Notes under the pieces: model-generated
What the model saw: only the letters and a program-made list of their open reading frames with translations
Told to the model about the DNA's origin: nothing
The model's database searches: none
DNA from: a virus
Taxonomy: Duplodnaviria; Caudoviricetes
Length of the DNA stretch: 37,085 nucleotides
Direction: 5' to 3' (one strand)
Virus record (IMG/VR): IMGVR_UViG_3300020201_000056
Span: 1 to 37,085 of that record
Translations under genes and position numbers: made by a program
Shown: piece after piece, positions 132 through 32,940 of the stretch
How the letters are laid out: each line of letters begins with the position of its first letter
How positions within the stretch are numbered: the first letter of the stretch is position 1

Positions 132-1079
132 GCAGACATAGCCATTGATCAGAAAAAAGCCAGAGGAGACTACGAAGGGGCACTTGAGACTGCAAAAATG
201 AAACTAGACGCAGAGTTTGCACCTATAGATAATCAAATCAAAGGACTCACAACACTCTATAGTTTCTTGCAAGATGATTTAACTGAAAGTGAAAAGTTAC
301 AGGCACAGGCGGTTATATCAGACAAAAACGCACTTCGTGATTTTAATTATGCCAAAGAACTGAATATACAACAAGCAGGAATAAAAGCGTCTCAACAGGC
401 GAGTGATAGTGGTATTTACACATCAAAACAACTGACAGCACTTACTAGATTAAATGACGGTATTTCTAAATCACAAGATTATTCAAAGACAGTAGTAATG
501 AAAACCTACGCAGACAATATACAAACAGCCCTAGCAAACAAAAACGGAGTTAGTGATATTTCTGCAATAAATCAGTTTCAAAAGATAATTGATGAGGGTG
601 CAGTTACAAGAGAACAAGACGTTGTACTTATTAGGTCTGCACAGTCTTTACTTGGTGTACTACAAACAAAAATCAAAGGACTTACAAAGGGTGAGAAGTT
701 AAATGAAAACCAGAGAACACAAATGAGTGAAATGGTTAATCAGTTTTACAATAATCAAATAAGGTCTTTACAAACCAGCCCTTACGTTCAAGCAAAAAAC
801 AGAGAGGCAGAACTTTATGGTCTAAATGTTTCTGACACAATACTTGCAGAGCTTACTGGGTTTACAAAGTCTGGTCAGGGGCAAAATCCACAAACATTTC
901 ATGTTGGGAACATAACATACACAGTTGGTGCAGATGGTAAGTATTATCCACCTTCTGGGGAATTACTAAAGAAACCTCCAGTAACACAACCAGCCCAACC
1001 AGCTTTTAGTAGTAGTAAGACAAGTCTTTTTAACTTTAGCGGTTATGACCCAAGTTGGCTTAACTCTTGGTTCAAATAA
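1..1079 (+). CDS. 3' part of putative DNA ejection protein (continues from 36549)
   Basis: ORF 96..1079 is in frame with the wrapped ORF; helical, Q/A/K-rich; synteny. Confidence 0.7.
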   Translation, partial: KYEKKTKEYEKLIKERLKNKEGTFGDATNEAVRVLETERDSRLADIAIDQKKARGDYEGALETAKMKLDAEFAPIDNQIKGLTTLYSFLQDDLTESEKLQAQAVISDKNALRDFNYAKELNIQQAGIKASQQASDSGIYTSKQLTALTRLNDGISKSQDYSKTVVMKTYADNIQTALANKNGVSDISAINQFQKIIDEGAVTREQDVVLIRSAQSLLGVLQTKIKGLTKGEKLNENQRTQMSEMVNQFYNNQIRSLQTSPYVQAKNREAELYGLNVSDTILAELTGFTKSGQGQNPQTFHVGNITYTVGADGKYYPPSGELLKKPPVTQPAQPAFSSSKTSLFNFSGYDPSWLNSWFK

Positions 1080-1080
1080 T

Positions 1081-3330
1081 ATGCAAGGATATACACTAGA
1101 AGAATTACAGAAAATGGGAGGACAGCCAGTTAATACGGGTGGTGGATTTACTCTGCAAGAATTACAGTCAATGCAATCACAGCAAACTACTAAAAAAGAC
1201 GGGTGGTTCAAAACCCTAATAAAAGACCCAATTAAGACATTGCTGGTTCAGCCAGCGGCAAGATTTACAGAAGCTGTTGGTAGAAGTGGTATACTTGGCA
1301 AAACAATCCAAACTGGATTTGAAAGTATGGCAGACGAGTCACAAGTATTTAATACATTTGCAGGTCAATACACGATAGACCCACAGAAAACTGGCATAGA
1401 GGGTGCAAGACAGATAATTGGAGACGTAGCAAAATCAGCATCATATTTATATACTGGGGGTGCAATAGCACCAGCACTCACAACGGGTGGTAGGGTTTCA
1501 CAGGGATTAGCTCAGGGTGCAAAAGTCGGTGCTATCGGTGGAGGTGCTTACTCTTTTGGAGATGCACTTCAAGACGCAGAAGCACAGCCAGCAGATATAG
1601 CGATGAGAACTTTATTCGGAACTGTTACTGGTGGTGTTTTGGGAGGTGTTTTGGGTGCAGGAGTCCCGCTTGTTGTTAAATCTGGTAGTATGGTAAGAAA
1701 GTTTAGTAACATTGAGTCTCTAAACGGAGAATTACAGACGATAAACAACACTGTTTTACGACCAACACCATCACAGTCTAGAGAATGGGCAGAAAAAAAA
1801 ATAAACCCAATCAAAACATACACAGAAATATTTGCAACAGAAGTTCCTAGTGTAGACAAATCAAATAGGTTCACACAAGAAAGTATAGAGGAGTTTGTCG
1901 GTCGTGTTGATGATTTATACAAGCCAGGTTCTTCTGCTTTCAATACAATTTTGAGAAACTCACCAGAGGTCACAAGTCTTTCTGTTGCGGAAATAAATGC
2001 AATAAAAAGGATTAACGGGTCTTCTCTCACATCAACACAGAAAATAAAAGCTCGTGCTGGAATACAAGCAGAGTTTAGTGCGATAAGGGTTGAATACGCA
2101 CCACAGATACTGGGTGGAGATAATATCCCAGTGGCACTCACCGACAACCTAAAAGATATTTCTTGGGGGGCTACAAAGTATTTTGGTGCAGAGGAGGCAA
2201 GTGTTACAAATGAAATAAACAGAACAATCGGTCGTGTTTTTGCAAAACAAATAGACGATGTTATAACAGACACAAGTGTTAATGGATTTAACAAACAGCT
2301 TCAAGAACTTATAAGGTTGAAAGAGTTTTTGGGTGGTCTAAATGGTAAACTAGCAGGAAGTGGTGGAAAAATGACAAGACTATTCTCACGGGTTATCGGT
2401 GGTATGGCTGGCTCTGTTGGTGGTATTCCTGGCACAATAGCTGGTTCTATAACTGGAGATATGATAGCACAAGCACTTATAAACCCAGCAAACTCACCAA
2501 TGAGGTGGTTGATTTTACAGCAAATAAAGAAACTTCCCCAAGCAGAAAGACAAACACTATTAGACCAAGCTAATGTGGTGTTACAAAAAATGTTCCAAAG
2601 GAGGTCAGAGATGTTGCGACTACCAGCTCCGTCTGGTGCTAGTCTAATCAATCAAGGTAGACCAACTAAAGTCCTACCAGCTGGTAGGTTTGAGTCCACA
2701 TCAGCAGACGTGGTTGCACAAAATTATTCCCCGTCTAAGAGTTTGGATACAACCCCAGCGATTGCAACTCCACAGATTACCCAAAATATAAACAATAACA
2801 TATCCCCTACCCTACCACCTAAAGGTTTAAAAGTAAAGGGCGAAATAAAAACTAACTCTGCCAAAGAAGCCATCGCTAAAGGAATGACAGAGGAGCAGTA
2901 TGTGAAGGAGCATGGAACGCCTTTGTATCATGGGACAAATGCAAAGTTTGATAAGTTTGATGTATCTATGTCTGGTGAAGTACAAAACGCAGACTGGGGT
3001 GACGGAATTTACTTTACTGATAATCCCGCACACGCTAAAAACTTTGCAAAAGTAGCTGGAGGCGACATTGTCATGGAAAGATTTGCTCCTAATGTGAAGT
3101 TTGCAGACGGAAGTAAACTCCTAAAGGACAGTAAGTTTATGGATGCTTTAGATGATGGAATGGGGTTTGTTACACCATCAGAATACTTAAAAGCAAAAGG
3201 ATTCGGTGGGGTAAAGTACAAGAATCCTCAAGGATTTACAGAATATGTTGTATACGACCCAAACAAACTCAAAACAACCGCACAACTCCGTGCAGAGTAT
3301 CAGGCGGCGAAGTTAAACAAAAAAAGATAA
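1081..3330 (+). CDS. Large DNA ejection/internal virion protein with C-terminal ADP-ribosyltransferase-like (ART-PolyVal-like) domain
   Basis: Gly/Ala-rich hydrophobic segments typical of ejection proteins; C-terminal LYHGT...FDKF...GDGIYFT...EYVVYDP; ATG 1081 directly after the upstream stop preferred over 1045. Confidence 0.65.
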   Translation: MQGYTLEELQKMGGQPVNTGGGFTLQELQSMQSQQTTKKDGWFKTLIKDPIKTLLVQPAARFTEAVGRSGILGKTIQTGFESMADESQVFNTFAGQYTIDPQKTGIEGARQIIGDVAKSASYLYTGGAIAPALTTGGRVSQGLAQGAKVGAIGGGAYSFGDALQDAEAQPADIAMRTLFGTVTGGVLGGVLGAGVPLVVKSGSMVRKFSNIESLNGELQTINNTVLRPTPSQSREWAEKKINPIKTYTEIFATEVPSVDKSNRFTQESIEEFVGRVDDLYKPGSSAFNTILRNSPEVTSLSVAEINAIKRINGSSLTSTQKIKARAGIQAEFSAIRVEYAPQILGGDNIPVALTDNLKDISWGATKYFGAEEASVTNEINRTIGRVFAKQIDDVITDTSVNGFNKQLQELIRLKEFLGGLNGKLAGSGGKMTRLFSRVIGGMAGSVGGIPGTIAGSITGDMIAQALINPANSPMRWLILQQIKKLPQAERQTLLDQANVVLQKMFQRRSEMLRLPAPSGASLINQGRPTKVLPAGRFESTSADVVAQNYSPSKSLDTTPAIATPQITQNINNNISPTLPPKGLKVKGEIKTNSAKEAIAKGMTEEQYVKEHGTPLYHGTNAKFDKFDVSMSGEVQNADWGDGIYFTDNPAHAKNFAKVAGGDIVMERFAPNVKFADGSKLLKDSKFMDALDDGMGFVTPSEYLKAKGFGGVKYKNPQGFTEYVVYDPNKLKTTAQLRAEYQAAKLNKKR

Positions 3331-8199: not shown

Positions 8200-8424
8200 A
8201 TGCTTGATATAAAACAAATACTAGGAGAAGAATACTTAAAGAGATTTAAGATATTTTACGAGCAAACATTATTTCCACCAATTTGGGAGAATATAAGAGT
8301 CGGTAGATGCCCACTTTGTAGTAATAAGTTAAAGATAGACTTAAAAGGAAATGGATATTGCCCGAGTAACAAACACGGAAAGTCTTTTTTTATAACAAGA
8401 GATAAACTAAATAAAATAAAATGA
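8200..8424 (+). CDS. Small zinc-ribbon protein
   Basis: CPLC...CPSNKH motif, 74 aa. Confidence 0.7.
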   Translation: MLDIKQILGEEYLKRFKIFYEQTLFPPIWENIRVGRCPLCSNKLKIDLKGNGYCPSNKHGKSFFITRDKLNKIK

Positions 8425-10391
8425 AAAACGAAGTAATACAAGGAGATTGTTTAGAAGTAATGAAGGGTATGCCCGATAATAGTGTGGACTCAATCTGTTG
8501 CGACCCTCCTTATGGTTTATCTTTTATGGGCAAGAAATGGGATTACGATGTGCCAACAGTTGAACTATGGAAAGAAGTTATCAGGGTATTAAAGCCGGGT
8601 GGACACTTACTTTCTTTTGCAGGTAGTAGAACCTATCACAGAATGGCAGTAAACATTGAAGACGCAGGGTTTGAGATACGAGACCAGATTATGTGGTGTT
8701 ACGGTTCAGGATTTCCGAAATCTCACAATCTGGGAAAAAGCGTTAATGCACTTGAAACTAAAGAGTGGTCAAAGATAAGCAATGCACTTGACAATATAGA
8801 CCAAAAGACTATAATTGAGTTATGGAAAACGAATGCAAAACTTGCGGAAATAAAATTAGCAAAGAGTCTAACAGGAGTTGGAAGCAATACTCAAAAAAAG
8901 TATTTTGTTCCCGACATTGCTGTTCTGTATTTCAATCAAAAAAACAAATATGCAGATGCGATAACTGCGGAGTTGAGCTTATGCGTTCCAAGTCGCATAT
9001 CAGAGGAAAATCTATCTATTGCAGTAGAGAGTGTAGAACAAAACACAGAACTATCACAAAGCCTTGTGAAGTCTGTAATAAAATTATCACAAGACCGAAA
9101 TCTCAAGTCTTGGAACATTTTTACTGCGGAATGCAATGTCAAGGAATGGCTAAACGAAAACACAACGGTCAATCTCAAGGTAGACGAAGCACTGAAGACC
9201 TTGCGTGGAAATCAGAAATACTCAAACGAGGAAATTACAAATGTGCTATGTGTGCTACTGACCGACACCTTGAAGCTCACCATATTAAATCAATCAAAGA
9301 CTTTCCAGAGCTTAGACACAAACTCTCAAATGGAATGTGCGTCTGCCACCAATGTCATTATTACGGAATACACGGCGGAGCACCTAATTTCAAACACGGT
9401 AGATATTCTAAAAAGCAAGGCGGTGGACAAGTTGCAAGGGAATGAGAGGGAAGATGCAGGAAGTTATACTATAGGGGGAATGGCACCAGACAGAGAGAAC
9501 TTTGGTGCTAACGACAGGAGCGAGGGCAAAGGTATGGGATTCCGAGCGGGTGATATTAAAATCACCCAAGGCTCATCACCCTACGAAGGCTGGGGGACAG
9601 CCCTAAAACCTGCACACGAACCTATCGTAGTAGCCCGCAAGCCACTATCTGAAAGCACTATTGCAGAGAATGTATTGAAGTGGGGAACGGGTGGGATAAA
9701 TATAGATGGTTCAAGGGTGGGGACAGAAGATAATAGAGCAAGAAAGAATCACATAGAGCCTGGGTTTGGTGGCGGTTGGGGGGCAAAAGATACCGAGAAT
9801 AATCCACTAGGCAGATTCCCCGCAAACTTCATTCACGACGGAAGTGATGAGGTGGTAGGGTTGTTTCCTGAGAGTAAAAGTCAAGGAAATAGAGTCAATG
9901 TCCAATACAAAAATCCTAACAACCCTGTAGTAAACTTTGGAGGAGGAATTAAAAACGACTTTAACGACTCAGGAAGTGCCTCACGCTTCTTTAAGACCTG
10001 CTCTTACGAAGAAGGAGAAGGTGCAATCTTCGCATATTTCCCAAAGGCTTCAAAGAAAGACAGGAATGAGGGGTTGGAGGGGTTTGAGGAGAAAGACGCA
10101 CCAGCAAGTGCTAGAAGTAAACCAGCAGAAGGTAGAGAAAATGCTTTGGGTAATCCAAGAGCTAACCACCACCCAACAGTCAAACCCACCTCCCTCATGC
10201 AATACCTTGTAAGACTTGTTACACCAAAAGGCGGGACGGTCCTTGACCCATTTTGTGGAAGTGGATCTACAGGCAAAGCGTGTGTTTATGAAGGCTTTGA
10301 TTTTATAGGAATAGAAAAAGAAAAAGAATACTGCAAGATAGCAGAGTCACGGATTAACTATGCCCTCGCCTCTCTAAATAAAATAAAATGA
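8421..10391 (+). CDS. DNA N6-adenine/N4-cytosine methyltransferase (beta class) with about 227-aa insertion
   Basis: GDCLEVM, DPPY near the N-terminus; HPTVKP and LDPFCGSGSTG near the C-terminus; insertion between SHNLG and KAVDKLQGNERE. Confidence 0.92.
   Translation: MKNEVIQGDCLEVMKGMPDNSVDSICCDPPYGLSFMGKKWDYDVPTVELWKEVIRVLKPGGHLLSFAGSRTYHRMAVNIEDAGFEIRDQIMWCYGSGFPKSHNLGKSVNALETKEWSKISNALDNIDQKTIIELWKTNAKLAEIKLAKSLTGVGSNTQKKYFVPDIAVLYFNQKNKYADAITAELSLCVPSRISEENLSIAVESVEQNTELSQSLVKSVIKLSQDRNLKSWNIFTAECNVKEWLNENTTVNLKVDEALKTLRGNQKYSNEEITNVLCVLLTDTLKLTILNQSKTFQSLDTNSQMECASATNVIITEYTAEHLISNTVDILKSKAVDKLQGNEREDAGSYTIGGMAPDRENFGANDRSEGKGMGFRAGDIKITQGSSPYEGWGTALKPAHEPIVVARKPLSESTIAENVLKWGTGGINIDGSRVGTEDNRARKNHIEPGFGGGWGAKDTENNPLGRFPANFIHDGSDEVVGLFPESKSQGNRVNVQYKNPNNPVVNFGGGIKNDFNDSGSASRFFKTCSYEEGEGAIFAYFPKASKKDRNEGLEGFEEKDAPASARSKPAEGRENALGNPRANHHPTVKPTSLMQYLVRLVTPKGGTVLDPFCGSGSTGKACVYEGFDFIGIEKEKEYCKIAESRINYALASLNKIK
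8788..8815 (+). promoter_or_regulatory. Consensus sigma70 promoter for the nested HNH gene
   Basis: TTGACA 8788-8793, 16 nt, TATAAT 8810-8815; HNH ATG 7 nt after the -10. Confidence 0.8.
8822..9445 (+). CDS. HNH endonuclease with three N-terminal Cys4 zinc-finger repeats, nested in another frame inside the methyltransferase
   Basis: CxxC...[FY]C[SG]xxC three times; CAMC...LEAHHIK...SNGMCVCHQCH HNH core. Confidence 0.9.
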   Translation: MENECKTCGNKISKESNRSWKQYSKKVFCSRHCCSVFQSKKQICRCDNCGVELMRSKSHIRGKSIYCSRECRTKHRTITKPCEVCNKIITRPKSQVLEHFYCGMQCQGMAKRKHNGQSQGRRSTEDLAWKSEILKRGNYKCAMCATDRHLEAHHIKSIKDFPELRHKLSNGMCVCHQCHYYGIHGGAPNFKHGRYSKKQGGGQVARE

Positions 10392-10528
10392 CCCGACAAG
10401 AAATAGACAACGATATAGAAAAACGCAAAGAGCTTTTTATGAAAGACGCAGATACTACACCCTTGACCATTGAGGATAAAGAAAGGGTAAGGGCTTTGTT
10501 GATTAAGTATAAGCCGCCTTACTTGTAA
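10388..10528 (+). CDS. Small hypothetical protein (46 aa)
   Basis: ATGA overlap with the methyltransferase stop. Confidence 0.55.
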   Translation: MTRQEIDNDIEKRKELFMKDADTTPLTIEDKERVRALLIKYKPPYL

Positions 10529-11476: not shown

Positions 11477-11785
11477 ATGAAAACAAAACAAGAACAAAAA
11501 GACGAGGCCTGCGAAGAATACGAAGCAACACAAGCACCAGCACTCAAAAAATACGAAGTAACCACAAAATTAGCACTCAAAAGATACGAAGCAATCATAG
11601 CCCCAGCACTTAAAGCATACGAAGAAATAATAGAGCCAGCGATCAAGGTATATCAAGCAACCATAGAGCCAGCATACAAAGAATACCAAGCAATCACGGA
11701 ACCTGCGCACAAAGAATACATTGAGGCTCAAGCACCAGCACTTAAAGTATACAGAGCTAAATTATTAGAAATAAATAACAGATAA
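11477..11785 (+). CDS. 11-residue repeat helical protein
   Basis: About 7 repeats of xY[EQ]xxxxPAxK. Confidence 0.8.
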   Translation: MKTKQEQKDEACEEYEATQAPALKKYEVTTKLALKRYEAIIAPALKAYEEIIEPAIKVYQATIEPAYKEYQAITEPAHKEYIEAQAPALKVYRAKLLEINNR

Positions 11786-11921: not shown

Positions 11922-12887
11922 ATGAAATTATACTTAATATCACAAGAAGTAAACAACAGATATGACAGATACGATGCATTCGTAGTATGTGCAGAGAATG
12001 AGGAAAAAGCAAAACTTATAAAAACACTATCCGCAGAAGGAGAAGATCATGGTGATTGGGTTAAAGATGTAAAATATATAAAAGTAAAATATCTGGGTGA
12101 AGCAGATGAAAGTATAAAAAAAGGGGAGATATTGGGAAGTTTCAATGTGAAATTATACTTAATATCACAAGAAAAAATAGAAGAAATGGTGCGAGATTTC
12201 TGCTCCGTAGTCCCAAAGTCAAAATGCAATCATTGTAAAGAAGAACATAAATTAAAAAACACAGGTTGCTCCAACTCTGGCCACTCCAACTCTGGCTACT
12301 ACAACTCTGGCCACTATAACTCTGGCTACTACAACTCTGGCCACTATAACTCTGGCGACTACAACTCTGGCTACTACAACTCTGGCCACTATAACTCTGG
12401 CGACTATAACTCTGGCGACCGCAACTCTGGCTACTACAACTCTGGCGACTACAACTCTGGCGACTACAACTCTGGCTACTACAACTCTGGCTACTACAAC
12501 TCTGGCTGGTTTAATACTGATGAGCCAACGATGCGTTTCTTTAATAAGGAAAGCAGTATCAAGTATTCAGATTTTAACGTTCAAGTGTACCCAGACTTAA
12601 AAATTTGTGCTTGGGTAGAACTAAACGCCTTACCAATAAACGAGCAAACAGAAAGTGCTAAGCAGATGGGTGGACTTCTTAAAACTTTAACCTATAAAGA
12701 ATCTTGGGCTGAATACTGGAATCGCGCAAGTGATAGTGATAAGAAATGGTTTCAAGAATTGCCGAACTTTGACGAAAAGACTTGGGAAGAAATAACGGGT
12801 ATTAAACTAAACGCACCGCTTTCTCTTTCAGGTAAAGAAGTATCAGTAAATGTAGATGGTAAAGATTACAAAGCTATTATCACCTAG
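11922..12887 (+). CDS. Chimeric protein with NSGxx pentapeptide repeats
   Basis: 16 NSG[HYDW]x repeats; also contains copies of its own start and of the next gene's start. Confidence 0.8.
   Translation: MKLYLISQEVNNRYDRYDAFVVCAENEEKAKLIKTLSAEGEDHGDWVKDVKYIKVKYLGEADESIKKGEILGSFNVKLYLISQEKIEEMVRDFCSVVPKSKCNHCKEEHKLKNTGCSNSGHSNSGYYNSGHYNSGYYNSGHYNSGDYNSGYYNSGHYNSGDYNSGDRNSGYYNSGDYNSGDYNSGYYNSGYYNSGWFNTDEPTMRFFNKESSIKYSDFNVQVYPDLKICAWVELNALPINEQTESAKQMGGLLKTLTYKESWAEYWNRASDSDKKWFQELPNFDEKTWEEITGIKLNAPLSLSGKEVSVNVDGKDYKAIIT
12273..12512 (+). repeat. Coding tandem repeat, 16 x 15 nt (AACTCTGGC + 6 nt)
   Basis: Directly visible; variation limited to codons 4-5 of each unit. Confidence 0.95.
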
Positions 12888-24515: not shown

Positions 24516-25583
24516 ATGCGCATATTGTATTTACCCGGCCGCTATGCGTTTTGTTACTACTATAGAGGTTACTTGCCGGGAGTCTACTCGGAACAAATGG
24601 TTGTTAGTGATTTTATCAAGTCAAACGGTGCTTCAACCAATTCAGACACGGTTGCAGAAATGGCTATCAAAGCTGATGTGGTTGTAATGCAACGACCTAA
24701 TGAAAAAAATAGTTTATCGCTCGCTATGTCAATCAAGCGTGCAGGAAAGAAACTTATCTTTGAGAATGATGATACTTACTTAGCAGGTAAGGGTATCCCA
24801 CTTGAAAGACTAGAGAATGATGACCAAAGAAAAATAGCGACCGACATGAGTCAGATAGTAAAGGATGTTCTTAAAATATCAGATGGTGTGATAGCTTCCA
24901 CTGAAACCTTAGCTAAAGAATACGCTGAAATAAATCCTAACGTAGTAGTGTTGAAAAACTGTATAGACCCACTCGATGATTTTCCTTGCAAAAAGAATAA
25001 CACAGGAAAATTTCGTTTAGGTTTTATAGGTTCAGTCACAACTAATGATGACTACCTACATATCAAAGACCAGATCAAAAGACTAGACGAGCGAGGTGAC
25101 ATTACTATAGTCGTTTTGGGTGTGAAGTATAAAGACGGCACTCATTTATCCTTTATGCAAATGGACTATGACTTTTGGTCATCGTTAAAGAATGTGGAGT
25201 GGCAATCTTATGTACCCGTAACAGAGTTCATGATGACTGTGGCGAACCTAGCATTAGATTTGGCGGTGATACCACGCAAGGACAATTACTTTAATCGTTG
25301 CAAAAGCAATTTAAAGTTTTTAGAGATGTCCTTATTAAATATCCCCGTAATAGCACAGGGGTTTGCAGACGGCACGAGTCCATATCAGGGTGTGGATAGC
25401 TCGTTTATGTCAATTGTTGTGGATGATAATTCGTGGTACGATAGAGTGATTGAAATCAAAGAAAACTATGCTATTTACTCCGACTTAGCAAAAAAGGCAC
25501 ACGATTATGTGCTGGAAAATTATAATATAAAGAATTGTGCGGTAGATTGGACAAGAGCTATAAATAAACTAATAAACAAATGA
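24516..25583 (+). CDS. Glycosyltransferase, GT-B fold (GT4-like)
   Basis: VVVMQR, FENDD, LGFIGS, FNRCKSNLKFLE motifs. Confidence 0.85.
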   Translation: MRILYLPGRYAFCYYYRGYLPGVYSEQMVVSDFIKSNGASTNSDTVAEMAIKADVVVMQRPNEKNSLSLAMSIKRAGKKLIFENDDTYLAGKGIPLERLENDDQRKIATDMSQIVKDVLKISDGVIASTETLAKEYAEINPNVVVLKNCIDPLDDFPCKKNNTGKFRLGFIGSVTTNDDYLHIKDQIKRLDERGDITIVVLGVKYKDGTHLSFMQMDYDFWSSLKNVEWQSYVPVTEFMMTVANLALDLAVIPRKDNYFNRCKSNLKFLEMSLLNIPVIAQGFADGTSPYQGVDSSFMSIVVDDNSWYDRVIEIKENYAIYSDLAKKAHDYVLENYNIKNCAVDWTRAINKLINK

Positions 25584-26050
25584 TAATAGATAAAACAATT
25601 TTAAGTGAAAAGAACTACACTGGCACTAGAAAGATTTTAATAAATGACGAGAAAGTAAGGACACTAAAAGGTGAATTAAAAAAGCTACAAAAAGAAATTA
25701 ATCCTATCCTAGATGGGCTTGCAGAAACCTTTAGTAAGTTTGACGCTACTAACAAGCTAATTAACGAACATCAGGAAGAGATCAAGAGATTAAATGTGGA
25801 GTTACAACCCGACAAGGATTTTTACGATGAAGAAATGAAGAAAATTGAGCCAGTAGAGAAGAAAGCTAAGCTAATCAAGGATAAACTAGAGCCGTTAGTG
25901 ATTAAATTAGTAGAAGATCAGCTCGGAGAGTTTGAGAAAGCCTTACACGTTATAGAGGATGACAAAAATGGCGATATTTATGTAGAAGTAGAAGACCAGA
26001 TTGAAAAAACTGTTTTAAGAATTAGAGAAGAGAACGCTAAAAAGAAATAG
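25580..26050 (+). CDS. Coiled-coil hypothetical protein
   Basis: K/E-rich heptads; ATGA coupling. Confidence 0.7.
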   Translation: MIIDKTILSEKNYTGTRKILINDEKVRTLKGELKKLQKEINPILDGLAETFSKFDATNKLINEHQEEIKRLNVELQPDKDFYDEEMKKIEPVEKKAKLIKDKLEPLVIKLVEDQLGEFEKALHVIEDDKNGDIYVEVEDQIEKTVLRIREENAKKK

Positions 26051-26051
26051 T

Positions 26052-27059
26052 ATGAAGAAGGTACTCTTAACTGGAGTGTCGGGGTTTGTGGGTTCGCACA
26101 TACTCCGTCATATATTAGTAAACACAGACTGGAATGTTGTGGGCATAGCTTCTTGGAAGCATAAAGGCACACCAGAGAGAATAGAAGAAACTTTGAAGGG
26201 CCACCCAGAGTGGAAAGACCGAGTGGAGATAATAACCCACGACCTTGTTTCACCTTTCCCCCCTATGACCAAGAAGCGTATCGGTAAGTGCGACATTATT
26301 TTGAATTTAGCGGCAGAAAGCCACGTTGATAGAAGTATCACAGAGCCACGACAGTTTATTGAAAACAATACGCAAGTCGCCTTGAATATGCTGGAGTACG
26401 CAAGAGATTGTCCACCAGAAGTATTTTTACAGTTTTCAACAGACGAAGTCTATGGAGTCGCACCCTTAGGTGTAGATCACAAAGAATGGTCAGCGATTAT
26501 CCCAAGCAACCCATATTCTGCGTCGAAGGCGTGCCAAGAAGCTATTGCTATCTCATATTGGAGAACTTATAACGTACCCTTGATTTTAACGAACACGATG
26601 AATATTTTTGGTGAGTTTCAAGATCACGAAAAGTATTTAGCTAAAGCAATTCGTTGTATAGAGAGCGGAGACACGCTAACTGTTCACGGGAAGGTAGGTA
26701 AAATCGGCTCACGCTATTACTTGCACGCAAGGAATATGGCAGACGCAGTTTTGTACATAGTAAAAAATCTCAAACCAACTTTTTATGTTCAAGACGAACA
26801 CCTTGTACCAGACCGATACAATATTGTCGGGGATATTGAGTTAAACAACCTAGAGATGGCAGAAACTGTTGCAGAGATAATGGGTAAGACTTTGAAGTAT
26901 GAGCTAATTGACCACCACAGCACAAGACCCGGACACGATTATCGCTATGCACTAGACGGACAGAAGTTAAGAGATTTGGGCTGGACAGCACCTTTAACAT
27001 TCAAAGAGTCTTTAACTAAGTATATTAACTGGACACTAGAGAATAGGGAATGGCTATGA
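26052..27059 (+). CDS. NDP-glucose 4,6-dehydratase (RmlB-like extended SDR)
   Basis: TGVSGFVG, AAESHVDRSI, STDEVYG, PYSASK, RPGHDYRY. Confidence 0.93.
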   Translation: MKKVLLTGVSGFVGSHILRHILVNTDWNVVGIASWKHKGTPERIEETLKGHPEWKDRVEIITHDLVSPFPPMTKKRIGKCDIILNLAAESHVDRSITEPRQFIENNTQVALNMLEYARDCPPEVFLQFSTDEVYGVAPLGVDHKEWSAIIPSNPYSASKACQEAIAISYWRTYNVPLILTNTMNIFGEFQDHEKYLAKAIRCIESGDTLTVHGKVGKIGSRYYLHARNMADAVLYIVKNLKPTFYVQDEHLVPDRYNIVGDIELNNLEMAETVAEIMGKTLKYELIDHHSTRPGHDYRYALDGQKLRDLGWTAPLTFKESLTKYINWTLENREWL

Positions 27060-27616
27060 TTGATATAAAAAAGATAAGTGGGCAACTGGGTAATCAAATG
27101 TTTCAGATAGCGTATATCTACGCACAAATGAAACGTGGGGAGATACCAGACATATATGTGCAAGACCCCGCATTATTCAGTGAGTACGAACAAGAGATCA
27201 AACAAATGTACGGGGCAGGTATAAGTCCTATAGACCAAGTGGCCATACATGTTAGGAGGAAAGATTACGTCAAGAATGCGTTTTATGTTGACATATCTGA
27301 TACCAATTACTACGAGAGAGCTATGGCAGAGTTTCCAAACGCAGACTTCCTTGTTTTTAGTGATGATATTGATTGGTGCAAACAACAAAATATTTTCAGT
27401 AACTGTGAGTTTTCTAATGGGAATGAGATAGAAGACATGAACATGATGGCAGGTTGTCGTGGTATTATTATGGCCAATTCATCGTTTTCTTGGTGGGCTT
27501 CCTACATATCCCCCTACGCAATAAAGGTAGTCTGTCCGAGTATATCAACACTATGGTATTCTGACGGGGAAGTAAGAACTAAAGTACCTAAAGAATGGTT
27601 ACAAATAGAAAAATAG
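27056..27616 (+). CDS. Alpha-1,2-fucosyltransferase-like (GT11)
   Basis: GQLGNQMFQ, HVRRKDY, FSDDIDWC, ANSSFSWW. Confidence 0.9.
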   Translation: MIDIKKISGQLGNQMFQIAYIYAQMKRGEIPDIYVQDPALFSEYEQEIKQMYGAGISPIDQVAIHVRRKDYVKNAFYVDISDTNYYERAMAEFPNADFLVFSDDIDWCKQQNIFSNCEFSNGNEIEDMNMMAGCRGIIMANSSFSWWASYISPYAIKVVCPSISTLWYSDGEVRTKVPKEWLQIEK

Positions 27617-28272
27617 CGATATGTATTCCTGTTCACAGTATGGACAACGCTCCATACTTCTTCACACGTTGTTTAGACTCAATAATCTCACAGACTTACG
27701 ATAACTTTGAAGTCTTTGTAGCAGATAATTCTGATGGTGATGTTCTTTATAAAATCTCACAGACTTATGGTATGAAAATCACTTGGATTAAAAATCCAAT
27801 AAGGGGTGCTTGTGTGAATACTAACAAAGCTATTAAGGGCGCAAAAGGCGAGATAATAAAGATACTGCACATGGATGACTTGTTTGCTCATAAAAACGCC
27901 CTACAGTCCATTTCAGAGACTTGGCGGGGTGGCTGGTTGGTAACAGGTTGCTACCACACAAATGGTAAAGACAGGATAAACCCCCATTTTGCTATGTATA
28001 ACAATAATATCCATAAAGGCAAGAATACAATTGGTTCCCCTTCAGTCTTATCCTTTGAGAATAATAACCCTTACTTGTTTGATGAGGAATCCGTATGGCT
28101 GTTTGACTGCGACCTTTACAAGAGATTGCACAAAAGATACGGGATGCCGACAGTTTTAAATGATTTTAACGTAGTGATAGGTATTGGAACACATCAGATG
28201 ACTGAAAAAATAACACAGGGTAGAAAAGACGAGGAGGTTTTGATAATGACAAAAAGATATGACACTATTTGA
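27595..28272 (+). CDS. Glycosyltransferase family 2
   Basis: ICIPVH, DSIISQTY, ADNS, LHMDD. Confidence 0.88.
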   Translation: MVTNRKIAICIPVHSMDNAPYFFTRCLDSIISQTYDNFEVFVADNSDGDVLYKISQTYGMKITWIKNPIRGACVNTNKAIKGAKGEIIKILHMDDLFAHKNALQSISETWRGGWLVTGCYHTNGKDRINPHFAMYNNNIHKGKNTIGSPSVLSFENNNPYLFDEESVWLFDCDLYKRLHKRYGMPTVLNDFNVVIGIGTHQMTEKITQGRKDEEVLIMTKRYDTI

Positions 28273-28768
28273 ATACTTAAAAATCAAAAGCTCGGATATT
28301 AACGAACACTTAGAAACGCTTAAAAACCTTGCGTCAGAGTGTGATCACGTCACAGAAATGGGAGTCAGATACATAGTATCAACTTGGGCATTTGTAGAAG
28401 GAATGAAAGGGGGTACATTGGTTTCAATAGACATTAAACACCCGAAAGAATACGGGGGCGATTTAGATTCTCTGGTAAAAGCGTGCAAGGACAAAGGGAT
28501 AGACTTTACTTTCAGAGAAGCTGATACAACAAAGATTAAGATAGACAAAACTGATTTGCTTTTTATAGACACAGACCACACTTATAAACAGTTAGAAACA
28601 GAGTTAAAAATACATGCGGGTAGTGTTAGAAAGTATATTGTAATCCACGACACTGTTTCTTGTGAGACAGAGTTGATGCCCGCCATAAATGAGTTTTTAG
28701 AGTCTGGTGTGTGGAGGGTTAAGGAGCATTACAAGAATAACAATGGGATTATGATTTTAATGAGATGA
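28259..28768 (+). CDS. Class I SAM-dependent methyltransferase (Methyltransf_24-like)
   Basis: EMGVR, DLLFIDTDH, IVIHDT. Confidence 0.85.
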   Translation: MTLFEYLKIKSSDINEHLETLKNLASECDHVTEMGVRYIVSTWAFVEGMKGGTLVSIDIKHPKEYGGDLDSLVKACKDKGIDFTFREADTTKIKIDKTDLLFIDTDHTYKQLETELKIHAGSVRKYIVIHDTVSCETELMPAINEFLESGVWRVKEHYKNNNGIMILMR

Positions 28769-29589
28769 TAATTACGGAAATCTACAATGGTATGGGGTTA
28801 GGCAACCAGTTAGCAAACATAGTAACAACTCGTTGCATAGCCTTAGACAATGGTTACGAATGGGGTATTGCACACCAAGAAAGATTCAAGGGACATTCGT
28901 TTATGACGCTTGATTTTGGTAAACCTGTCATAGGTGGACACACTCCAGTAGAGGGCCAAGCACCTAGTGAATTACCCGAAGGAATAGAGAGATATTATCG
29001 GGAGAAAACTACGCTACACGCAAACGGGAGTGATATAAGTGGCTATGATGATTATTTAAGAAGAATACCAGATAACACTATGGTACACGGATTGATGCAG
29101 GGTTCGGATTACTTCATTCATAGGAGGGCAGAGATACGAGAGTGGTTAAAGACCGAGCCATTAGATGTCCCTGAAAATGTATGTGTTCTAGCTTTTAGAG
29201 GTGGGGAGTATGTGTGGGTTAAGGATTTCTTTTTACCTAGTAGTTATTGGGAGAACGCTATGGAAAAGATGAAAAAAGTCAGACCCGATATTGTGTTCAG
29301 AGTAGTAACAGATGACGTGATTACAGCTAAACAATTCTTCCCTGATCTAGAGATAACCCACGAGATAGGACACGACTGGCGGTCAATACATAACGCACCT
29401 TATGTAATACTTTCCAATTCATCATTTGGCTTTTTCCCCGCGTGGCTTAGTTTGAAACTAAAGTATTGTATAGCACCGAAGTATTGGGGCAGATTTAACA
29501 TTTCAGACGGATACTGGAGTATAGATCAAAATTACACACAAGGTTGGAATTATTTAGACAGAGATGGTGTATTAACAAAAGAGAAATGA
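28765..29589 (+). CDS. Second GT11-like glycosyltransferase
   Basis: GMGLGNQL, FRGGEY, VVTDD, SNSSFGFFPAWL. Confidence 0.82.
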   Translation: MIITEIYNGMGLGNQLANIVTTRCIALDNGYEWGIAHQERFKGHSFMTLDFGKPVIGGHTPVEGQAPSELPEGIERYYREKTTLHANGSDISGYDDYLRRIPDNTMVHGLMQGSDYFIHRRAEIREWLKTEPLDVPENVCVLAFRGGEYVWVKDFFLPSSYWENAMEKMKKVRPDIVFRVVTDDVITAKQFFPDLEITHEIGHDWRSIHNAPYVILSNSSFGFFPAWLSLKLKYCIAPKYWGRFNISDGYWSIDQNYTQGWNYLDRDGVLTKEK

Positions 29590-30200
29590 AAATAACGAAC
29601 TCTTTTTTAGTAGTAAGTAACTACAATTGCAACCTTGACTGGCTAAGAGAGTATTCTGATAATTATATAATTTATAATCGTGGCGAAAAGATAGACGACA
29701 CTAAGGCAATACAGGTAGAGAATATCGGCTACAATATCCACGATTATTTATCTTTTATCATTGAAAACTACGAGAAATTACCCGATGTTGTTCAATTTAC
29801 CAAAGGCAACATTTTAGAAAGGCATATCACTAAAGAGGAGTTTGATGAAGTCTGTAATAATAAAACCTTCACACCCCTATTAACAAAGAACCACGAAACG
29901 CAATCGGGTATTTCTTTTTATAACGAGAACGGGATTTATGAAGAAAAAAATACTTCGTGGTATTTATACTCTTATGATGCAAAGTATTATTTCAGTTATG
30001 CAGAGTTCGCTAAGGATTTTGATATCAAGTACAAAGATTACTTGCCTTTTGCGCCCGGTGCGTGTTACATAGTGCCAAAGGATAACATCTTAAAGCACAG
30101 CAAAGATTACTACTCACGACTACGGGATTTAGTATCTTGGACACAACTACCGGCAGAAGCGCACCTTATAGAACGAACACTTTACACTTTATGGAAGTAA
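29586..30200 (+). CDS. DUF3431-like putative glycosyltransferase-associated protein
   Basis: VVSNYN...W, YN(R)G, NIG, YLSFIIENYEKLPD, FAPGACYIV, HLIER; ATGA coupling. Confidence 0.7.
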   Translation: MKITNSFLVVSNYNCNLDWLREYSDNYIIYNRGEKIDDTKAIQVENIGYNIHDYLSFIIENYEKLPDVVQFTKGNILERHITKEEFDEVCNNKTFTPLLTKNHETQSGISFYNENGIYEEKNTSWYLYSYDAKYYFSYAEFAKDFDIKYKDYLPFAPGACYIVPKDNILKHSKDYYSRLRDLVSWTQLPAEAHLIERTLYTLWK

Positions 30201-30580
30201 AATACTCAACGGAAAAACCTCCTAATAACATATACGAGAAGTGTCGGGAGAGATTTGGTGTTGATTGGGATAAAGGAATTATTTTTACTTATGGAGATAC
30301 AATTTACTGTAAGTCACCCATTTCAGATGACCTTAAAGTCCACGAGGCGACTCACATCAGACAACAAAGAGAAATCGGTGAAGATATCTGGTGGGAACGC
30401 TACTTAAAAGATAAAGATTTCAGACTCTCACAGGAAGTTGAAGCGTATAAAAACCAGATGGAGTATATCAACAAAAATTACAATAGAAACGCAAGAAGGT
30501 ATTTATATAAGCACATTATAAGAAGTATGGTAGAACTTTACGATATGTGTACTGAAGAAGAAGCTAAAAAATTATTATGA
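30191..30580 (+). CDS. HExxH-motif protein (zincin/DUF4157-like)
   Basis: VHEATHIRQQ...EVEAY. Confidence 0.65.
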   Translation: MEVKYSTEKPPNNIYEKCRERFGVDWDKGIIFTYGDTIYCKSPISDDLKVHEATHIRQQREIGEDIWWERYLKDKDFRLSQEVEAYKNQMEYINKNYNRNARRYLYKHIIRSMVELYDMCTEEEAKKLL

Positions 30581-31317
30581 TTATTGACTTGTTTTATTTT
30601 AACAACGAGCTTGATCTTTTGGAGATACGCTTAAGTATCCTAGACAAGTATGTGGATAAGTTTGTTTTAGTAGAAGCAAGAGAGACCTTTTCAGGCGTGC
30701 CTAAACCTTTATACTACGAGGAAAACAAGGAACGTTTTGCTAGGTGGAATATTATACATTATGTCGTGGAGAACGGGGATAAAGAAGTAGAGAAAATGGC
30801 ACTACTGAGTCCTAACACTGGTGCGGGTGAGCATTTTTGGTTGCGTGAATTTTACCAAAAAGAAATGGCACAGAAAGCACTACTCTTTTGTGAAGATAAT
30901 GACATTGTATACATATCGGATGTAGACGAGATTTGGCGACATGAGTCTATGCCTGAGATTAAAGACGCTATATATAAACCCCGACAACTTCCCTATCTTT
31001 ATTTTCTTAATCAGAGAACTAATGAGAACTGGCTTGGATGGACTGGGACTATTTGTACAAGGTATAAGAATATTAAAGGTGCTTGTATGAATCATTTGAG
31101 AACAGACGATATGAATGAATACGAAGTGGTGGAGCGAGGTGGTTGGCATTTCAATAGTATCGGTGGCAAAGAAAAAAAGAAAAACGCATTTAAACACCCC
31201 GTATATGAGAATGATACGGAGTGGCAACGCAGAGAGGTTGAAATGCACATAAGCGATGTTGATTGGCCAGAATATTTATCATATAATAGGGATAAGTATA
31301 AACAATTATGCAAATGA
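30577..31317 (+). CDS. GT17-like beta-1,4-N-acetylglucosaminyltransferase
   Basis: FNNELDLLEIRL, FVLVEA..TFSG.PKP, SDVDEI, GGWHF. Confidence 0.88.
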   Translation: MIIDLFYFNNELDLLEIRLSILDKYVDKFVLVEARETFSGVPKPLYYEENKERFARWNIIHYVVENGDKEVEKMALLSPNTGAGEHFWLREFYQKEMAQKALLFCEDNDIVYISDVDEIWRHESMPEIKDAIYKPRQLPYLYFLNQRTNENWLGWTGTICTRYKNIKGACMNHLRTDDMNEYEVVERGGWHFNSIGGKEKKKNAFKHPVYENDTEWQRREVEMHISDVDWPEYLSYNRDKYKQLCK

Positions 31318-31511
31318 TATTCGTGGTTTCAACCGACCATAACAAAACTATTTGTTGCCGTCTTGATGGTGACGAGGTGATTAAGAGTGTGGATAGCGAT
31401 ATTGTCAAAGAAACAATAAAAAGTTCATCACATAAACTTTTGGAAAGTGGTGGTATCGGTAGTGCTTGGCTGATAGATTTCAATAGCAAAGATATAACTA
31501 ATATTCGATAG
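31308..31511 (+). CDS. Hypothetical protein (67 aa)
   Basis: Fills the gap in the operon. Confidence 0.55.
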   Translation: MQMIFVVSTDHNKTICCRLDGDEVIKSVDSDIVKETIKSSSHKLLESGGIGSAWLIDFNSKDITNIR

Positions 31512-31516
31512 AACAA

Positions 31517-32206
31517 ATGGATACAAATGTTAGTGTCATAATCCCCTGTTACTCTTACGCAAGATACTTAGACGAAGCAATTCAAAGCGTGCTAGACCAA
31601 ACTGTAAAGGCTCACGAGATAATTGTTGTGTCAGACGGGGCGATAGATAATTCGGTAGAGATAGCTCGTAAATATCCAGTCAAGATTATAGAAAAAGTAA
31701 ATGGTGGACTGGCTTCTGCTAGAAACGCTGGGATAAAGGAGGCAACGGGAAAGTATATTATGAGTTTTGACTCTGATGATATTCTGCGACCCGACTGTAT
31801 AAAGGAGCATTTGAAACTAGCAGACGAAAATACAATAGTGACGTGTGGACTGATGGCTTTTGGGAAAATTAGCTACACAGCAAGACCAGAGGTGGCTACG
31901 CTAGAAATACTAATGAAAAGAAACTGTGTATACAGTAATTCACTGTTCCCAAAAACCCTATGGGAGAAAATTGGTGGATTTGACGAAAGTGAAGTTATGC
32001 GACTCGGACTTGAAGACCATCTTTTTTGGAAAGAATGCGCTGCGATTGGATCACACTTTAAGACCTCCAGCTATATTGGGCTTTTATGGAGGCGACATAA
32101 CAACGCAATGTCAGAGACAAGTGCAAATCCAAACTGGGATACTATTACTAAGTTTATGAATGAAAAAATGAAGAATAAGTACGGCCTAGACAATCCGACC
32201 ATTTAG
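31517..32206 (+). CDS. Glycosyltransferase family 2
   Basis: SVIIPCY, SVLDQT, NGGLASARNAG, FDSDD, IGGFDE, LED. Confidence 0.92.
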   Translation: MDTNVSVIIPCYSYARYLDEAIQSVLDQTVKAHEIIVVSDGAIDNSVEIARKYPVKIIEKVNGGLASARNAGIKEATGKYIMSFDSDDILRPDCIKEHLKLADENTIVTCGLMAFGKISYTARPEVATLEILMKRNCVYSNSLFPKTLWEKIGGFDESEVMRLGLEDHLFWKECAAIGSHFKTSSYIGLLWRRHNNAMSETSANPNWDTITKFMNEKMKNKYGLDNPTI

Positions 32207-32220
32207 GGCTTTGATACCAT
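32192..32220 (+). promoter_or_regulatory. Putative late promoter 3
   Basis: AATCCGACCA-N10-TGA-TACCAT; adaptor ATG 7 nt after the -10. Confidence 0.7.
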
Positions 32221-32226
32221 TGTGGT

Positions 32227-32940
32227 ATGTCTTTAACATACACACAACTACTTGACCTAATTGACGATAATGTCAAGAGTAACAGTAGCTCTTACAGCAC
32301 AGCCGACAAAACAAGAGATATAAACATCGCACTAGACAGGGCTTTCTCCTTGATTTTTAGCGTTGGTGGAAATTGGCAATTTGACGACAGTAACCATGAA
32401 GGTTATCCGTTTATTACAACTGCTATAGTTTCAGGACAAAGGTCTTACACCTTTACAGAGGACGAAGACTCTAACTTGATCTTAGAGATTTACAAAGTAA
32501 TGATCGCAGACTCAAATGGGCTATTCAGAGAAATAACTCCAGTGGACCAGCAAGCAGTCAATCCGTACTCTCCTAGTAATTATTGGAATGGACTGAATAC
32601 AACAGGAACTCCAAACACTTACGACAAAACTGCAAACGGAATATTCCTTGACCCTATCCCTAACTACAATAGAGCTGCGGGATTAAAGATTTTTATCAAT
32701 AGAGAAGGCTCTTATTTCCTTACAACAGACACGACAAAAAAAGCGGGTTTTGCGGGGTTGTACCATGAGTATCTAGCTTTAAGACCCTCATACCAATATG
32801 CGTTCCGTAATTCCTTGCCTAATGCTGCGGTATTAAAAGCAGAAACCGTAGAAATGGAAAACGCTATGATGGATCATTACAAAAAGCGTGAAAAAGACGT
32901 TATTAAAAGAGTAACAGGTAAACAAAATAATTATAAATAA
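32227..32940 (+). CDS. Head-tail adaptor (tail tubular protein A-like)
   Basis: Helical ends, TTAIVSGQRSY, IFLDPIP, YHEYL; first gene of the tail module. Confidence 0.7.
   Translation: MSLTYTQLLDLIDDNVKSNSSSYSTADKTRDINIALDRAFSLIFSVGGNWQFDDSNHEGYPFITTAIVSGQRSYTFTEDEDSNLILEIYKVMIADSNGLFREITPVDQQAVNPYSPSNYWNGLNTTGTPNTYDKTANGIFLDPIPNYNRAAGLKIFINREGSYFLTTDTTKKAGFAGLYHEYLALRPSYQYAFRNSLPNAAVLKAETVEMENAMMDHYKKREKDVIKRVTGKQNNYK

Follow-up and report, generated by a model that had tools for sequence, protein, structure and literature searches.

The window, that is the whole stretch of DNA analysed here, is an entire virus record of 37,085 bases with genes for terminase, capsid, holin, amidase and glycosyltransferase. 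On its forward strand lies an ORF of 656 aa (8421..10391) for a beta-class N6/N4 DNA methyltransferase, which matches PF01555 (E=5e-33) and phrog_67, has the fold of its class (matching M.BceJIV, CcrM and M.RsrI) and carries the class signature of DPPY towards the N-terminus and FxGxG towards the C-terminus. DPPY (8502..8513), almost invariant in alignment A2, we take to be methyltransferase motif IV, and DPFCGSGSTG (10245..10274), recognisable from the sequence as the SAM-binding motif and modelled with a pLDDT above 90, is presumably motif I. The ATG of a small ORF on the same strand (10388..10528, no PHROG match) overlaps the methyltransferase stop as ATGA, an arrangement that makes translational coupling between the two possible.

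This methylase gene contains an in-frame insertion of 681 nt on the same strand (8736..9416), across which its reading frame stays open. In an alignment with insertion-free homologues the host motif FPKSHNLG (8712..8735) is followed in empty alleles by KAVDK or KAIDK, and in the window KAVDKLQG starts at 9417. The boundaries proposed by a first-pass annotation of this DNA, made from the sequence alone, thus stand, also when breakpoints between near-identical inserts are compared, except that each is ambiguous by 2-3 codons (8736-8744 at the 5' end, 9416-9424 at the 3' end). The word AAAAAGC, which had been reported at both ends, does occur at 8735 and 9410, but its copies are 675 and not 681 nt apart, and as it is found at both ends in only 2 of 71 copies it can be ruled out as a target-site duplication. 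Two copies of AATGCACTTGA at 8745 and 8781 (8745..8791, forward strand) were correctly identified in the window copy, the second containing the start of the -35 box described below. An independent contig covers 8667-9632, including both junctions, with zero differences, so the insert is not an assembly artefact.

The first insert codons (8736..8768, forward strand) resemble, in the MTase frame, the host helix that they displace, reading K-x-I/V/L-D/N-K against K-A-I/V-D-K in the host (71 invaded alleles compared with 50 empty ones by column profile), and a helix is predicted over them at methylase residues 104-124. The host loop at the insertion site, the end of which is marked in sequence comparison by GWGTALKP (9588..9611, forward strand), ranges from 13 to 145 aa in 67 empty alleles, which shows that the insertion site is a loop of optional length. 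A different HNH, unrelated to that of the window, occupies the same loop at L174:500-1400; it is encoded in the +1 frame, leaves the methylase frame open and has a cysteine pair at each end, and the loop is for this reason regarded as an insertion hotspot.

The insert encodes, in the +2 frame of the same strand, a 207-aa HNH endonuclease (8822..9445). The first-pass annotation had described a complete zinc-finger HNH ORF at these positions, and coordinates, family and residues all agree: the ORF matches phrog_1271 (E=4e-18), has the invariant Cys, His and Asn, and consists of three N-terminal Cys4 zinc-finger repeats followed by a C-terminal HNH domain. The catalytic core, CxxC..HH..NG..CxxCH (9242..9358, forward strand), is intact in 78 of the 79 sense copies of the family described below. 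The Pfam match of the window HNH alone is weak (E=0.039), with PF01844 matched by 11 of 14 aligned homologues; the model has a pLDDT of 82 and its best fold match is 5H0M, the GVE2 HNH, at E=0.009, with zero matches in the fold search at E<=0.001. It had also been noted that the HNH takes its stop codon from the resumed methylase sequence. This is copy-specific, with 30 of 75 copies stopping at the junction and the others at host-encoded stops further on, and since the position differs between copies a host-derived stop can be ruled out as a design feature.

Upstream of the HNH ORF is a sigma-70-type promoter, TTGACA-16-TATAAT (8788..8815, forward strand), the sole 12/12 match between 8000 and 10700. 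The claim that it is perfect and placed for a leaderless transcript is borne out, both the geometry and the leaderless ATG being conserved in the family. Among the 70 copies scored (nine could not be scored) 46 have TTGACA-16-TATAAT-6-ATG with <=2 mismatches, as against 0.24% of 7,139 other ATGs, and a Shine-Dalgarno-like word precedes the HNH ATG in only 3 of the 70. A leaderless HNH mRNA starting at or near 8822 is therefore predicted from the sequence. The promoter consensus has been lost in some clades, and in one that comprises L008, L020, L083 and Escherichia phage BUCT618, where near-identical inserts sit in different hosts, the -10 box is degenerate, so that the promoter may be dispensable.

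When the insert region as translated in the MTase frame was used as the query, 104 protein clusters were obtained, almost every one an N6/N4 methylase with a homologous insert after FPKS. As such a query selects for an open frame, DNA was also fetched with the HNH as the query, which gave 114 loci (80 of 110 from the metagenome scan being kept) in addition to phage BUCT618. With 8 loci of short or no HNH match left out the remaining 107 reduce to 87 distinct copies, of which 79 are inserted in sense and 7 in antisense orientation, L099 being the one free ORF; copies and sites are related by descent, so these counts are not counts of independent events. The window insert belongs to a widespread family. 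Most alleles are empty: the 80 closest methylase N-termini in viral contigs include this insert once, an unrelated HNH insert once and 78 empty alleles. In the cultured phage BUCT618 (L195, OM735461.1:36396-38258) the insert is present with both frames intact. The insert was without a match in the plasmids searched, the BUCT618 insert found no match in E. coli genomes, and a profile search of the family gave no further full-length locus. Two loci, L087 and L111, that might be considered broken copies can be ruled out as such, since every one of their stops is a TGA, mostly standing where both frames have a conserved Gly; they were read with NCBI table 25, which has this reassignment, and are not sisters in the HNH tree.

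The first-pass annotation had argued that the absence of stops in the MTase frame over 207 overlapping codons is unlikely to be chance, and both recoding and shuffling nulls agree. Synonymous recoding of the HNH with the codon usage of the window gives a mean of 7.6 stops and a stop-free frame in 0 of 20,000 trials, and under the mildest null, in which the HNH's own synonymous codons are shuffled, P=0.007. The depletion extends to the family, whose inserts do not usually carry stops: over the HNH core the MTase frame has none in 77 of the 79 distinct sense copies, and all 79 together have 3 stops in 15,315 codons, where ~399 would be expected over 77 copies and the third frame has 1,441. A GC-matched subset has 0 stops in 4,032 MTase-frame codons. 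The 8 homologues that are not read in this frame (the 7 antisense copies and L099), which are valid controls for the +2 sense frame yet under an antisense constraint of their own, have 37 stops in 1,562 codons, with 2-7 in each of the eight. Where a Leu, Val or Ile codon of the HNH precedes an A, the stop-making third base A or G is used in 0 of 605 cases, compared with 23 of 54 in controls. The same frame is kept in the leader, which runs from FPK to the HNH ATG and is not part of the HNH: nine different lengths occur, which differ by multiples of three in 73 of 75 copies; the MTase frame contains 12 stops where the other two frames contain 253 and 304, and among 71 in-frame copies only L069 has a leader stop.

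Constraint on the MTase frame goes further than the avoidance of stops. Four-fold sites of the HNH that carry no risk of a stop diverge less than those of controls (0.36-0.51 vs 0.57-0.78), and their third-base entropy is 0.74 bits over 21 sites in the part predicted to be helical and 1.36 over 13 sites in the disordered part (p=0.001). The helical part, methylase residues 240-339 (9138..9437, forward strand), is overprinted on the HNH core, and it is here that HNH-silent sites are fixed so as to give Leu or Glu; Pro188 of the HNH, for example, is CCT in 76 of 76 copies, which gives Leu in the MTase frame. Among residues of the MTase frame Pro accounts for 2-3% (controls 7%) and Glu for 6-8% (controls 1.7%). 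In the model the methylase core has a pLDDT above 90 and the helical part of the insert only 50-70. Both frames of the insert are thus open and under selection.

A few copies are damaged in one frame. L056 has a nonsense codon in the HNH with the MTase frame open, and the same holds for L048 over the HNH core, with a stop five codons from its contig end; a lesion of the MTase frame in or beside the insert is found in 5 of 79 (L063, L065, L069, L076 and L114). In L076 (48-1079, P0003) a frameshift joins the methylase N-terminus to the HNH, which may be an assembly error or a true frame switch. Where the end of the ORF lies inside the locus, motif I is within the same ORF in 44 of 50 invaded copies and in a separate downstream C-terminal ORF in the other 6. 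An initial count of 11 invaded ORFs ending before motif I was discarded, as 5 were misses of the search pattern and 6 are split by a second cassette. These methylases, split again downstream of the insert with the C-terminal part in a separate ORF, are those of L005, L036, L060, L073, L080 and L097; the second split follows RFPAN or RWPAN in L036, L060, L073 and L080, and the restart peptide is conserved in five of the six.

Evidence for mobility comes from the junctions and from the host phylogeny. Inserts that are 95-97% identical lie between flanks that are 57-96% identical, mostly under 90%, and identity drops within a few bases of the 3' junction whilst the 5' break is spread over ~30 nt. 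A sharp 3' break together with a variable 5' break is what would be expected of homing with one-sided co-conversion. On the host tree the invaded alleles require 11-13 changes. An AU test does not reject a single invaded clade on all 127 rows (p=0.109); it does so only in a post hoc analysis on 115 rows (p=0.013), with 12 long-branch rows dropped and the blocks aligned separately. Distances of insert and host are poorly correlated (r=0.13-0.24), but as the N and C blocks of the host gene correlate hardly better with each other (r=0.19-0.30) the gene is a mosaic in any case and the discordance is not specific to the insert. Because the tree evidence is the weaker and the halves of the host gene correlate so poorly, we regard homing as likely and no more than that.

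Copies of the same HNH are also found in other settings. At L114 (4950-5600) a sense insert with a host-like start occupies a second site ~15 residues upstream, before AWVYG, and the methylase has a stop just downstream of it. Of eight homologues that were candidates for free-standing genes, seven proved to lie antisense within the methylase gene, which leaves L099 as the one free ORF. The L099 ORF (550-1090) lies directly 5' of a methylase gene, and in the tree it branches from within the embedded copies; it has one nonsense codon, its shifted frame has five stops, and it is possibly an escaped, decaying copy.

The seven antisense homologues form a clade (support 96) inserted at the same site. 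Antisense inserts of this HNH family, with the methylase split, are located at L092, L100, L101, L102, L104, L107, L109 and L110. In this clade the first part of the methylase runs on from FPKS through a conserved tail of ~40 residues to a stop, and the second part begins with a conserved head of its own, the restart ATG being the HNH -35 box in reverse complement. Across the HNH core no stop interrupts the codon-aligned antisense frame in 7 of 7 antisense copies, which is true of only 2 of 79 sense copies (2 of 24 when GC-matched). The filler ORF, with ~190-250 codons and no stops, spans the HNH; at the loci where the junction was found it starts over the first stop and mostly ends near the restart. 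This arrangement suggests that the filler ORF serves as a translational relay. With respect to the direction of the inversion between sense and antisense the HNH tree is unrooted, and the head of the antisense C-terminal half was searched for in viral contigs and not found.

Taken together we favour, with a probability of roughly 70%, a homing insert that does not splice, in which the HNH is self-promoted and leaderless and the MTase frame is read through as a tolerated loop. RNA polymerase would start at the internal promoter, at or near the ATG, to give the zinc-finger HNH, which during co-infection would cut or nick an empty methylase allele near its FPKS..KAVDK codons, and repair would copy the insert in. 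The long mRNA would give a single methylase of 656 aa, in which the first insert codons stand in for the displaced host helix, the helices of the last third of the insert lead back to the core and its middle part is disordered; for these reasons the invaded methylase would stay active. The first-pass annotation had proposed a dual-coded, self-promoted homing element, and the dual coding, the promoter and the lack of intron and intein features all hold, with homing supported indirectly. It had left open whether the host tolerates a protein loop or the insert is bypassed or removed. As the MTase frame is stop-free in 77 of 79 relatives the insert is likely to be translated as a tolerated loop and not spliced, and the depletion of stops, the leader frame, the amino-acid constraint and the lack of conserved RNA structure all favour the loop over bypass or removal.

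The alternative that survives best, although we consider it improbable, is that the HNH is now inactive in homing and that the insert is a domesticated or hitch-hiking cassette, for instance a nuclease partner or DNA-binding module for the methylase, moved by ordinary recombination between FPKS and GWGTALKP. Such a cassette would sit easily with a host gene that is mosaic even where it lacks the insert, with an AU test that is not significant on all rows and with the strong constraint on the MTase-frame product. It fits less well with breaks that fall within a few bases of the 3' junction and not at the next conserved motif, with near-identical HNHs beside unrelated variable loops, unlike a matched restriction-modification pair, and with the presence of the HNH family at a second site and in antisense.

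Slightly less probable still is that the frame is open only for the passage of ribosomes, so that polarity is avoided and coupling to the next ORF kept, and that the invaded methylase is crippled. The antisense clade, by keeping its filler ORF free of stops, indicates that ribosome passage alone can be selected for here, and the overlap of the methylase stop with the next ATG points the same way. However, the Leu and Glu fixed at HNH-silent sites, the depletion of Pro and the host-like first helix exceed what stop avoidance would produce, and the catalytic motifs are retained.

Removal of the insert is very unlikely at either the RNA or the protein level, and the earlier verdict of neither intron nor intein is upheld, with no intron RNA, no Hint domain and no His-Asn end found. 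An intron that has escaped recognition would fit the in-frame length and the host-like 5' end, and atypical phage introns exist, as cited in PMC11855218. Against it, searches with Rfam gave no intron for the window or for 16 related loci, shuffled sequences fold almost as well as the insert (z=-0.86), and a consensus fold of 27 copies has two-sided changes in 3 of 46 pairs, an unpaired leader and almost no covariation; moreover an intron needs neither stop avoidance nor amino-acid constraint. Protein splicing, for which it can be said that the window insert starts with Ser if the junction is set after Gly-Lys, and ribosomal bypassing, which requires neither an open frame nor conserved residues in it, have equally slender prospects, as the MTase frame of the insert matches no Pfam or PHROG family, its first residue varies (S, Q, A, N), it has no His-Asn end and its model is helical or disordered and not beta-rich.

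The general view is that a homing endonuclease inside a gene spares its host only by means of an intron or intein. An exception was proposed in 2025 for a different insert in this gene family, from which the window insert differs in site, HNH type and promoter. The ShiLan domain is a hidden out-of-frame HNH in the mycobacteriophage DNA methylase gp65 (PMC11855218; PMC9957025), for which a tolerated loop and a leaderless start were proposed without experiments, with about ten close copies (PMC11855218). The window insert has the same layout, a stop-free in-frame insertion with a complete HNH ORF on the same strand and no intron or intein features. Like the window methylase gp65 is a PF01555 protein, with N-terminal blocks 62-70% identical, and ShiLan likewise has an HNH in the +2 frame, an open host frame, no intron or intein and first residues that resemble the downstream flank; its distribution is patchy, as that of the window insert may be. 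The sites differ, ShiLan following GTALKP and the window insert following FPKS ~60 residues upstream, and so do the nucleases: that of ShiLan is described as central and I-HmuI-like, with a GTG 18 nt in and a TAAC end, whereas that of the window has its ATG 86 nt in and a stop whose position varies between copies, and only the zinc-finger repeats of the two match (E about 1e-3). The window insert therefore works like the ShiLan domain without being a member of its family. A conserved internal promoter is a feature of the window family, the 5' part of ShiLan having at least 4 mismatches to the same consensus, and the window family is much larger and more divergent, with TGA=Gly phages and an E. 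coli phage among its hosts; no ShiLan-type phage is among the 40 of 68 phage hits listed.

Other systems share parts of this arrangement. Pacc40 gp60 also has an out-of-frame HNH hidden in a phage methylase (PMC11855218; PMC12613952), with a methylase and an insert that are different according to the paper (PMC11855218), and Applejack gp54/gp55 are reported as free-standing relatives upstream of a methylase, comparable to L099 (PMC11855218; PMC12613952). In Aeh1 nrdA split by mobE is reported to be rescued without splicing by an element-derived peptide, which is reminiscent of the antisense clade; there are two chains there with tails shown to be essential, whereas the window copy is read through as one chain (PMC3045599). 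Inteins with out-of-frame or antisense endonucleases, as outlined in a preprint, similarly have an endonuclease overprinted on an open host frame, but they possess a splicing domain, and none was found in the window insert (bioRxiv 10.1101/2025.01.02.630785). In the literature searched there is no description of this site, family or promoter, and the ShiLan repository files or the supplement of the intein preprint may list related inserts.

The ShiLan paper left two questions, namely by what means the HNH is expressed and whether the enzyme does in fact tolerate the loop (PMC11855218). The window family offers a candidate answer to the first, in its conserved internal promoter and leaderless start, and quantitative evidence of translation and selection of the host frame for the second, and it adds a sister architecture to this kind of element; since the insert occurs in BUCT618, an E. 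coli phage that is in culture, a laboratory test is feasible. A broader proposal, which we put forward tentatively and at somewhat less than even odds, is that the element brings its own overprinted protein adaptor, a helical stalk that evolved de novo over the promoter and codons of the HNH and makes the insertion harmless although nothing is spliced, and that inversion at a single site has taken a single HNH lineage between two arrangements, a read-through chain and a split enzyme whose tails come from the element and which has a relay ORF free of stops. If this were true, homing elements would have in rescue without splicing a third general route, next to introns and inteins. The insert is in addition a clear natural case of dual coding over 200 codons, with a helical domain that is likely de novo. 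Annotation misses such genes, that of BUCT618 listing the methyltransferase only and not the nested HNH.

Some other features of the window are worth recording. A block of glycosyltransferase genes with a GDP-mannose dehydratase-like gene (24516-32940) lies 3' of the capsid gene and possibly has a role in glycosylation of the virion or of a surface. A 761-aa protein (1045-3330) has a C-terminal ART-PolyVal ADP-ribosyltransferase domain, comparable to phage polyvalent proteins. ORFs at 11477-11785 and 11922-12887 contain internal repeats, an 11-residue Y/E/A repeat and pentapeptide repeats (PF01469), and the short peptide IEEMVRDFCSVVPKSK is common to the ORFs at 11922 and 12856.
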